This document shows positions 153 through 12,615 of a stretch of 28,931 nt of DNA, in pieces. Position 1 is the first letter of the stretch. Every line of letters starts with the position of its first letter. The position numbers were made by a program, and so were the translations under genes. The stretch lies in the IMG/VR virus record IMGVR_UViG_3300032218_002135, positions 1-28,931 of that record; one strand, written 5' to 3'. Source of the DNA: a virus (Duplodnaviria > Caudoviricetes). The notes beneath the pieces are model-generated. The model was not told where the DNA came from, did no database searches, and saw only the letters and a program-made list of their open reading frames with translations.

Positions 153-183
153 ATACACATACACTAGCAACTAAGGAGCGAAC
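145..183 (+). repeat. 39-bp direct repeat, copy 1 (-10 box + leader + RBS cassette)
   Basis: GCTATAATATACACATACACTAGCAACTAAGGAGCGAAC is identical to 1114-1152. Confidence 0.95.
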
Positions 184-441: not shown

Positions 442-471
442 AGACACATCAACAGCAACAAGGAGCAGACT

Positions 472-674: not shown

Positions 675-701
675 AAAGACATAGCAACAAAGGAGCGAAA
701 C

Positions 702-1121: not shown

Positions 1122-1152
1122 ATACACATACACTAGCAACTAAGGAGCGAAC
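1114..1152 (+). repeat. 39-bp direct repeat, copy 2
   Basis: Identical to 145-183. Confidence 0.95.
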
Positions 1153-1155
1153 CAA

Positions 1156-1476
1156 ATGGCTAAGTTACACATCTACACACAGGACCAAGAGAACTACGGT
1201 GCCCATGATTGGGACGGCACAGGTGCTTGCCCGCAGTACTGGAAGTTCAAAGGTGGTGAGGACTTCTTTGTGCCCAAGTTCAAGGGCGGCGATGTAGAAG
1301 CCTCTATGGCTGTAATGGCCCTGCGTGATCAGATTGAAGAGAACAACGACTACTTCCGCCGCCAGATCGTTGGCTGGGCCATTGTGGCTAACAACTTCAT
1401 GACTGACTTTGAGCAGAGCCAGTTGGACTACGAGGGCAAGATCACTTACCCTGCTAAGACCTTGGAGTGGGCATGA
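1156..1476 (+). CDS. Hypothetical early phage protein (106 aa)
   Basis: ORF after P4 and RBS; ENYGAHDWDGxGxCPQYWKFKGG motif. Confidence 0.85.
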   Translation: MAKLHIYTQDQENYGAHDWDGTGACPQYWKFKGGEDFFVPKFKGGDVEASMAVMALRDQIEENNDYFRRQIVGWAIVANNFMTDFEQSQLDYEGKITYPAKTLEWA

Positions 1477-1684: not shown

Positions 1685-1712
1685 AGTACTTTAACACACA
1701 GAAGGAGCGACA

Positions 1713-2609
1713 ATGGCAAAAGGTAAAGTAATGACTCTGCAGACTTTGGCTAAACAAACAGCTGAAACCAAGAGCCTTGAAACGGACAAGGACTATATCC
1801 GTGCTAAAGAAGCGGCTTTGGCCCAAGAGTCCGACGAAGAGATCATGACACGTTTGGCACAGCGTTTTGATATTCTAGAAGACATGACCCGTGCTGTTAA
1901 GCGGGGTGATGTACGTGCTATGATCGTTACGGGCCCTCCAGGTGTGGGCAAGAGCTTTGGTGTAGAGAAGGTACTGAGCAAGCATGATGTGTTTGCCACA
2001 GTAGCAGACGACAAGAAGCTGAAGAAGTACGAAGTGGTCAAGGGTGCGATGTCAGCTATTGGACTCTACAGCAAACTCTACGAGTTCTCAGACACTAAGA
2101 GTATTCTAGTGTTTGACGACTGTGATAGTGTGCTGATGGACGACCTGAGCCTTAACATTCTCAAGGCAGCATTGGACTCAGGTAAGAAGCGTATGATCCA
2201 TTGGAATACGGACAGCCGCTTGTTGCGTAGTGAAGGTGTGCCCAACAGCTTCGAGTTCAAGGGCGGTGCTATCTTTATCAGTAACATCAAGTTCGATCAC
2301 GTTAAGAGCAAGAAGCTTAGAGATCACTTGGAAGCATTGGAAAGCCGTTGCCACTACTTGGATCTAACTATTGATACAGAGCGTGAGAAGATACTCCGCA
2401 TCCGTCAGGTAGTTAACGACTGTGGCATGCTGGATGACTATGAGCTAGAGGACTGGGCCAAGTTGGAAGTAGTGGACTTCATTGAAGCTAACAAACATCG
2501 CATGCGTGAGCTGAGCCTGCGTATGGTGCTTAAGGTAGCAGACATCCGTAAGAGCATGCCCGCTAACTGGAAAGCTGTAGTAGAAGTAACATGTATGCGT
2601 AACCGCTAA
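1713..2609 (+). CDS. AAA+ / P-loop ATPase (298 aa)
   Basis: Walker A GPPGVGKS, Walker B ILVFDDCD, sensor-1-like IFISN, arginine-finger-like ALESR. Confidence 0.9.
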   Translation: MAKGKVMTLQTLAKQTAETKSLETDKDYIRAKEAALAQESDEEIMTRLAQRFDILEDMTRAVKRGDVRAMIVTGPPGVGKSFGVEKVLSKHDVFATVADDKKLKKYEVVKGAMSAIGLYSKLYEFSDTKSILVFDDCDSVLMDDLSLNILKAALDSGKKRMIHWNTDSRLLRSEGVPNSFEFKGGAIFISNIKFDHVKSKKLRDHLEALESRCHYLDLTIDTEREKILRIRQVVNDCGMLDDYELEDWAKLEVVDFIEANKHRMRELSLRMVLKVADIRKSMPANWKAVVEVTCMRNR

Positions 2610-2610
2610 G

Positions 2611-2788
2611 GCTACGCTGTAGTGTACAGCAAGCAGCCGCTAAGAGCTGTGCTGTAGCAGTAGGATAGGCTAGTAGATTCGCTCCCGAACACCTGTCCAT
2701 AAACACTGGCGCCAACAAGGCAACAGTGTTTACATCCTAGGAACCCATAAGCCCGATTCGCTCCCGGCAAGTTCCTAGGATTTTTTTT
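2611..2788 (+). ncRNA. Putative structured small RNA with two anti-RBS loops (GAUUCGCUCCCG x2)
   Basis: Consecutive stems: GCTAC/GTAGC enclosing GCTGTA/TACAGC and GCAGC/GCTGT; GGATAGG/CCTGTCC; TAAACACTG/CAGTGTTTA; ATCCTAGGAAC/GTTCCTAGGAT plus T-run. 12-mer repeated at 2676-2687 and 2755-2766. G-U pairs and the U-tail favour the + strand. Confidence 0.7.
2734..2788 (+). terminator. Intrinsic terminator closing the early region / sRNA
   Basis: 11-bp stem 2734-2744/2771-2781 running into T8 (2781-2788). Confidence 0.75.
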
Positions 2789-12586: not shown

Positions 12587-12615
12587 ATTATAACAGACTA
12601 AATGGCAAAGGTCAA
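12587..12615 (-). promoter_or_regulatory. sigma70 promoter of primase (leaderless)
   Basis: TTGACC, 17 bp, TATAAT, 5 nt, ATG 12581. Confidence 0.8.

Follow-up and report, generated by a model that had tools for sequence, protein, structure and literature searches.

A conserved phage 3′-UTR element with loops complementary to a ribosome-binding-site tag of predicted early genes

A conserved 3′-UTR element of T4-like phages, as RNA, probably base-pairs in trans with a private ribosome-binding-site (RBS) tag (GGAG+CGAA) of predicted early genes and blocks ribosome loading, as judged from sequence comparison. The element follows an AAA-type ATPase gene in the window, by which we mean the whole 28,931-nucleotide stretch of DNA analysed, a 28.9-kb virus record with T4-like replication and packaging genes (helicase, primase, UvsX, UvsY, SSB and terminase, from family scans). 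Comparison with relatives identifies the element as real, conserved and predicted to fold, with stems that vary yet pair around an invariant loop, AUUCGCUCC. A preliminary description of this DNA had read it as a small RNA that shuts off the early regulon through a shared RBS, and that interpretation is partly supported. Throughout, we take ‘early’ to mean a gene led by a sigma70-type promoter and ‘late’ a gene preceded by TAAATA, both by inference from T4 biology.

In the proposed mechanism, the early promoters would be read through to the terminator of the element, and the structured 3′ end, whether processed into a fragment or still part of the mRNA, would persist for longer than the rest of the transcript and accumulate. 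Its 8-nt seeds would then cover the Shine–Dalgarno (SD) core and spacer, lowering translation of the tagged set, which includes the element’s own ATPase mRNA and would thus create negative feedback that may serve as a timer. Untagged genes such as SSB and uvsX, whose GGAGAA RBSs pair with the seed over 4 bp, would escape. A few late-looking genes of relatives (holin-like, CsgF-like and membrane genes) would either stay repressed until enough of their own mRNA has built up to titrate the RNA away, or act as a sink for it.

The element and the tagged leaders in the window

Table 1. Predicted features of the element and its complementary leaders (window coordinates)
Feature	Position	Strand	Basis
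RBS tag GGAGCGAA before ATG 185, 8 bp; promoter 124–152	175..182	+	sequence, promoter scan, duplex
Partial tag GGAGC before ATG 472, 5 bp; promoter 413–441	462..466	+	sequence, promoter scan, duplex
RBS tag GGAGCGAA before ATG 702; promoter 646–674	692..699	+	sequence, promoter scan, duplex
RBS tag GGAGCGAA before ATG 1156; promoter 1093–1121	1144..1151	+	sequence, promoter scan, duplex
Wobble variant GGAGTGGG before ATG 1473, 8 bp including three G-U	1464..1471	+	duplex computation
RBS tag GGAGCGA before AAA ATPase start, 7 bp; promoter 1656–1684	1704..1710	+	sequence, promoter scan, duplex
AAA-type ATPase gene (phrog_1250)	1713..2609	+	protein family match; element in its 3′ UTR
Structured non-coding element, candidate 3′-UTR regulatory RNA	2611..2788	+	between AAA ATPase stop and U-tract; fold and comparison
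Variable 5′ interrupted hairpin, AGUG bulge	2616..2661	+	MFE fold; missing from minimal homologues (L196, L203)
Hairpin 1, GGAUAGG/CCUGUCC stem, bears motif copy 1	2663..2698	+	sequence and fold
Anti-RBS seed 1, UUCGCUCC; CUCC exposed, UUCG partly paired	2678..2685	+	fold probabilities
Variable spacer hairpin	2700..2732	+	fold and comparison
Terminator-like hairpin, U8 tail; apical CCG/CGG stem closes 9-nt loop AUUCGCUCC	2734..2788	+	fold and comparison
Anti-RBS seed 2, UUCGCUCC	2757..2764	+	sequence and fold probabilities

The preliminary description proved correct in all its coordinates for the 12-mer repeat, its core, the RBS positions and the pairing lengths. The 12-mer GATTCGCTCCCG starts at 2676 and 2755, and the core TTCGCTCC at 2678 and 2757, its sole occurrences in the window; among 3000 dinucleotide shuffles, none contained two copies of TTCGCTCC and a single one contained any 12-mer repeat. 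The duplex with the seed covers the GGAG core, which 16S rRNA must pair, and the computed cost of opening the loop (~1.5 kcal/mol) compares with ~ −13 kcal/mol for the 8-bp loop–tag duplex. At 2676–2686 the element reads GAUUCGCUCCC, which we liken to the 3′ end of 16S rRNA and which differs from it mainly in three bases reading the tag spacer.

The predicted plus-strand fold is more stable than that of shuffled sequences (z −3.88, with 0 of 200 as stable). The fold drawn by eye in the preliminary description comprised a three-way junction and three hairpins ending in a terminator; the hairpins and terminator are retained in the minimum free energy (MFE) structure, which has an interrupted 5′ hairpin in place of the junction, and the sole multiloop closure needs bases past the U-tract. 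The centroid fold keeps only a small hairpin at 2616–2630 in this 5′ region, with the loop AGUGU. Exposure of the two seeds is uneven: seed copy 1 can form UUCG/CGAA pairs, with an unpaired probability of 0.2 at three of its first four positions and of 0.92–0.97 across CUCC, and seed copy 2 ranges from 0.39 to 1.0. The placement of the motif in open loops is therefore only partly realized in this genome, whereas it holds in homologues, where the mean unpaired probability of the loop over 181 contexts is 0.83.

The element is flanked by small genes of no assigned function, the ATPase and a deformylase. A minus-strand open reading frame at 2612–2836 was rejected as a gene, given that the motif spacing of 26–84 nt is even over the three frames (28/29/31) and that the frame has no family match. 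After the terminator, a second conserved non-coding block at 2810–2990 contains a GG-rich run, TTGTTG...CAAC, AAATCACC at 2915, AAGTAC and AAATTTTT; in 56 of 86 class A loci, AAATCACC is found no more than 520 nt from the ATPase stop, and the block may be an origin, packaging or terminal site. Elsewhere in the window, sigma70-type promoters at 12615 and 19922 on the minus strand precede the primase gene and a 416-aa gene. These have almost no leader and no tag, and therefore would escape the RNA. No tRNA genes were found in the window, and no antirepressor family among its 35 scanned proteins.

Conservation, structure and strand of the element in relatives

Conservation in relatives, anticipated in the preliminary description, is borne out by 112 viral stretches that match the double motif. 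A single 15-mer was found in at least 123 stretches from a quarter of the collection, corresponding to an estimated ~490 overall. The class A motif (loop UUCGCUCC) occurs within 200 nt of the stop codon in 98 of 243 distinct ATPase loci, a fraction that is inflated because many loci were retrieved via the motif itself; among loci retrieved by protein alone, the motif is present in every listed row of L001–L030 and L037–L055. Class A ATPase loci carry one to three motif copies, and 88 of the 98 have two, spaced 26–84 nt apart in all three frames. The uncultured relatives include records of 356–383 kb at 96–100% estimated completeness. The closest annotated ATPase relatives, at 47% identity, belong to PA5oct-like Pseudomonas jumbo phages; the PA5oct ATPase locus contains neither loop motif, and blastn with the element as query matched none of 50,697 annotated phage records. 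PA5oct has an RNA-seq-annotated non-coding RNA (L179:3040-3658) ~2 kb upstream of its ATPase homologue, which likewise holds neither motif. The sole match in a prokaryote genome, a phage-like contig filed under an Ignavibacteria MAG, was rejected as a host clue.

The ATPase gene is not the only site of the element. Of the 109 distinct contexts with a single motif, 41 come after a winged-helix gene, 30 after the ATPase and 38 after neither; by eye, the last group comprises ~14 contexts after a third early gene, ~9 opposite-strand RBSs and ~12 probable chance matches, these ~12 of the 109 being GC-rich and set aside on that judgement. Because the contexts span the winged-helix gene, the ATPase and the third early gene, the module appears tied to the 3′ ends of early units and not to one gene. 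In G025, G026 and G027 (L633, L635, L638, L639, L641, L642), two single-hairpin copies occur, one behind the winged-helix gene (HTH_39) and the other overlapping the final codons of the third early gene.

Structure is conserved through pairing rather than through stem sequence. Across 181 contexts of the 9-nt loop, pair 1 is G-C in 177, and pair 2 is paired in 171 through five pair types. Terminator arms form a mean helix of 9.0 bp with their own partner (at least 8 bp in 69 of 79), compared with 4.4 bp for swapped arms, 3.7% of which reach that length, and the predicted stem covariation is thereby confirmed. RNAalifold on a MAFFT alignment, in which the outer stems do not stay in register, recovered just the apical stem of 3 bp; it is the arm-swap control that recovers the outer stems. 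An Rfam search under gathering and E-value thresholds, a check that the preliminary description had also called for, returned no gathering-level match (best E value 5.1, to unrelated families). We found no description of the element RNA in the open-access literature; in the supplement to PMC10690425, the motif is absent from the six files searched, and three further files (1, 2, 4) may hold an unnamed model.

Several features assign the RNA to the plus strand. A T-tract follows the motif in 96 of 98 loci, whereas an A-run precedes it in 0 of 79; and among 40 contexts, GNRA or UUCG tetraloops occur 7 times on the plus and 0 times on the minus strand. G-U versus A-C flanks weakly favour the plus strand (108:91, p 0.08; 30:16, p 0.03). 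The U-tail and the G-U pairs had both been cited earlier in favour of this strand; the cited G-U pairs are present, yet the G-U count in MFE folds is uninformative (458 on plus, 566 on minus); a count of interior interruptions stands at 14:7. The minus strand of the element also folds slightly better (z −4.65); folding energy is no test of strand.

That minus-strand stability is among the points that could favour a motif read by a protein, in which GGAGCGAA would be bound by a repressor, nuclease or DNA-binding protein and the element would serve as a minus-strand decoy or inverted operator. In sponges of the CsrB/RsmZ type, the transcribed strand displays GGA loops for CsrA. A minus-strand sponge of this kind finds no support: the U-tract lies on the anti-GGA strand, and phage-encoded CsrA was not found in the 4 near-complete genomes by a search with a working control. 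A regB gene was found in 0 of the 4 near-complete genomes, in a search whose positive control gave no match, and RegA was not matched in the genomes searched, again with no positive control. A protein reader would have a precedent in T4 RegB, which reads the extended sequence GG*AGRAYARAA (PMC3014915), and the late sites described below are themselves small hairpins. However, the U-tract and the promoters face the plus strand, the tag variants favour wobble pairing, and the late sites run into clade-specific stem arms (14 nt in G006), so that we regard a protein-read motif as very improbable.

Co-switching of loop and tag, and the reach of the RNA

The loop and the RBS tag change together between clades, as anticipated for the early-RBS consensus. 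Loops and tags were classified by script over 242 loci, with PA5oct omitted. In the 107 class A loci, GGAGCG occurs in 381 of 637 promoter-proximal leaders and RAGGGC in 0 of 637. In the 32 loci of the sister clade, class B, where the loop is UGCCCUC or UAGCCCUC and the RBS GAGGGCA or GAGGGCU, RAGGGC occurs in 139 of 222 leaders and GGAGCG in 8 of 222, 7 of these 8 coming from L212, a false B call whose actual element is class A. Four loci scored in both classes, and for 99 the fetched DNA contained no element (GGAGCG in 65 and RAGGGC in 40 of their 465 leaders). Orthologous genes follow the same division: for one early orthologue, 21 of 24 class A loci show GGAGCGA and 6 of 8 class B loci show RAGGGC, and the ATPase has GGAGCG as its RBS in 58 of 62 loci of class A and RAGGGC in 19 of 25 of class B. 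Counts of the exact 7-mer as an RBS in near-complete genomes are 14, 15 and 6 for class A and 10 for class B, compared with 0–2 for the 7-mer of the other class. On a quick tree of 106 ATPases, class B falls within a single clade with support 100 and a class C group within a separate one with support 98, and the co-switch therefore rests on about two independent events; related leaders are non-independent counts, which makes p values optimistic.

In class C, both sides are shortened, to GCUCC and GGAGC, and 78 of 106 leaders pair over exactly 5 positions. A second conserved loop, GUAGUGU, is found in class C (L195, L199, L200, L202, L207, L213, L227, L231, L234, L238–L240, L249), and 42 of 100 class C leaders have ACACUA upstream of GGAG/SD, compared with 1.9 in shuffled sequences, 49 of 511 class A leaders and 0 of 169 class B leaders. 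The two may form a possible two-part recognition. GTAGTGT also occurs in the window at 2619–2625, and the 185 and 1156 leaders contain ACACTAG; within class A, we found no link between a UAGUGU loop and ACACUA leaders (3/22 versus 53/524, p 0.48). In L200, most leaders read GGAGAAAC and the loop UUGCUCCG, and the predicted loop UUUCUCC was not found. In an AT-rich sister clade, the ATPase is preceded by AAAGGGCAC, with the element absent in 30 of 45 motif matches examined (five fragments, 12–41% complete).

Substitutions within the tag are biased towards those that preserve pairing. Among GGAG leaders of class A, all 8 positions pair in 213 of 459 early leaders versus 11 of 267 non-early ones. 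Variants carry G in 20 of 76 cases at position 8 and in 13 of 55 at position 7 (8% expected from spacer composition), and class B variants carry U in 9 of 10 at position 6; at class A position 5, no C-to-U wobble variant was seen (0/5). The wobble-compatible bias at three tag positions argues for RNA pairing over a protein site. A simple terminator with complementarity by chance, for which the normal-looking intrinsic terminator formed by the last hairpin could be cited, is scarcely credible beside two seeds arising in 0 of 3000 shuffles, an invariant loop among varying stems and the co-switch of loop and tag.

The target layout bears on whether the RNA acts in cis or in trans. Five sigma70-type promoters (124, 413, 646, 1093, 1656) face the element, and the scan found no plus-strand terminator between them and it; with its loop limit of 8 nt, the scan also missed the element’s own terminator, which has a longer loop. 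Of 520 tagged leaders across relatives, 424 are upstream of the last loop, and in 18 of 98 loci no more than 10 nt separate the first motif copy from the stop codon. These observations are compatible with a cis fold-back, in which the 3′ loops of an early mRNA that has reached the terminator would bind the RBS of that same mRNA, so that translation lasts only until the transcript is finished. Stand-alone copies would speak against it, and among 40 matches in a promoter-anchored scan just 1 was plausible (L669, a metagenome contig on which a second copy, lacking a U-tract, may follow a promoter of its own). However, the other 96 tagged leaders, in 51 of 139 loci, lie downstream; promoter-led tagged genes sit ~250 kb from the element in near-complete genomes, and tagged genes are found 100–280 kb away in relatives; and L059 has a stand-alone copy behind its own promoter with no intervening gene. 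Tagged genes that are downstream or far away cannot be cis targets, nor does the L059 copy fit a cis arrangement, which argues for action in trans. As the sole mode, cis fold-back is unlikely, and it may operate alongside the trans mode for the upstream cluster.

Motif copies that abut the stop codon, in those 18 ATPase loci and in the third gene class, could also be read as activating, with loops docking on tagged leaders and passing terminating ribosomes on to raise translation. Activation is nonetheless very doubtful: the duplex hides the GGAG core needed by 16S rRNA, and the late sites form 11–17-bp duplexes over or beside that core.

The preliminary description had placed the phage targets among the early genes. 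The tag is indeed found on early genes, but not exclusively, as a few late-looking membrane- or lysis-type genes of relatives carry longer complements; no such site was found within the window. Tagged non-early genes include GTA_holin_3TM, CsgF, curlin-repeat, DUF4337 and phrog_18771. GGAGCGAA serves as the RBS of the holin-like gene in 3 of 3 class A genomes, with CAGCGAGGGCA in its place in the class B genome G006 and GGAGUAA in the class C genome G029; the gene shows no tag in the four outgroup rows, where start codons are uncertain. The CsgF-like gene carries the tag of its class in G002 and G006 and none in 4 of 4 outgroup genomes; for phrog_18771, the class-matching tag is present in G002 and G006 and missing from the class A genome G024. 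Late-looking leaders of relatives contain 11–17-nt complements over or beside the SD core. The element’s longest exact match elsewhere in the genome, in pairing orientation, is such a leader in G005 (17 nt), G006 (14 nt), G002 and G001 (13 nt each), although chance matches of 13–14 nt occur and the G002 match ties with one. The long sites track the clade consensus over the genome’s own stems, one G002 site matching the G005 RNA over 16 nt and its own over 12. In G001 (C1:278900-278966, L585), a DUF4337 leader directly after a TAAATA late-type promoter has a near-perfect 24-nt complement of the terminator hairpin, which includes the 13-nt match, followed by a second site at the RBS, making it a candidate sponge or strong target. 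In three short records whose relation to the jumbo phages is uncertain (L615, L618 and L619; G016–G018), a gene that we take from a translated motif to be HNH/endonuclease-VII-like bears the complete CCGGGAGCGAATCG complement ahead of its GTG start codon.

Clade-specific tags would also fit superinfection exclusion, in which the RNA mainly blocks early translation of a related incoming phage and tag classes equate to immunity groups. The c4 RNA of P1/P7, which is described as acting via loops on RBS-proximal sites and as underlying heteroimmunity (PMC12197685), offers a parallel. As the main role it is decidedly unlikely: the class A loop is nearly invariant down to ~61–65% ATPase identity, which suggests lock-in by many targets, and tags on the phage’s own late-looking genes point to self-regulation.

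A broader scheme can be put forward tentatively, and we hold it to be rather less probable than its absence. In these 350–380-kb lytic-type phages, one RNA would read the RBS tag, shut down the early regulon through 7–8-bp seeds and gate holin-like and membrane genes through 11–24-bp sites, setting the early-to-late switch and lysis timing, with late mRNAs titrating the RNA. Clades would rewrite tag and reader into orthogonal codes, which may exclude same-clade phages, and one clade would add a loop reading ACACUA upstream of the SD.

Relation to known regulatory systems

If repression in trans is correct, the element would be a trans-acting RNA that governs a whole temporal gene class in a T4-like phage, and it would connect early shut-off with control of a holin-like gene. 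The natural class A and class B pairs would be ready-made orthogonal repressor–RBS sets. On present sequence evidence, the element is a member of none of the cuckoo, OppZ/CarZ, c4 or RegB systems, having other motifs and no Rfam match.

In architecture, the element resembles the cuckoo/CcsR RNAs of Alphaproteobacteria, which have 2–4 adjacent hairpins with variable stems and an invariant C-rich anti-SD loop, CCUCCUCCC, and whose target specificity is left open in the account cited (PMC4615179). Adjacent hairpins, variable stems and one repeated loop recur here (1–3 copies, two in 88 of 98); in contrast, the loop is AUUCGCUCC or UGCCCUC and not CCUCCUCCC, the RNA is phage-encoded, and a private RBS extension co-varies with it. 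The Burkholderia double-hairpin ‘toxic’ sRNAs (RF02278) share the two-hairpin shape, with CU-rich stretches predicted over RBSs; they are chromosomal, with host metabolic targets predicted (PMC5688073, PMC4603805), and the element does not match their Rfam model.

In position, the element resembles OppZ and CarZ of Vibrio cholerae, 3′-end operon RNAs that pair with their own transcript and inhibit translation (PMC7398697): it lies at an operon 3′ end, appears to share the terminator and is complementary to the initiation region of its own transcript. Each of those RNAs serves its own operon, whereas here the seed fits ~6–15 exact-tag genes per genome on many promoters. A C-rich motif in the 3′ UTR of S. 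aureus icaR likewise pairs with the SD and blocks initiation (PMC3868564), although it acts on one mRNA in cis, in contrast to the many targets here, some on separate transcripts; it is the precedent for the cis fold-back considered above.

Among phage systems, the c4 antisense RNA of P1/P7 displays complements to sites near the RBS in its loops, as the element does for the phage’s own mRNA; it controls one antirepressor mRNA of a temperate phage (PMC12197685), whereas here there is no RF01695 match, no antirepressor family among the window proteins scanned that would supply an immI-type target, and a genome-wide tag. In T4, the RegB endoribonuclease singles out early mRNAs via GGAG and a 3′ extension and inactivates them, easing the early-to-later switch, and according to a 2010 review no trans-acting small RNA had by then been characterised in T4 (PMC3014915). 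RegB is a protein nuclease, of which the RNA reader proposed here would be the base-pairing counterpart. Finally, the start-associated sequence (SAS) of cluster K mycobacteriophages is a phage-wide extended RBS motif on non-structural genes, for which an RNA or protein reader has been proposed (PMC3203893). The present tag differs in sequence and phage group, and it is accompanied by a matching RNA, which offers a testable answer to what may read phage-wide extended RBS motifs such as SAS.
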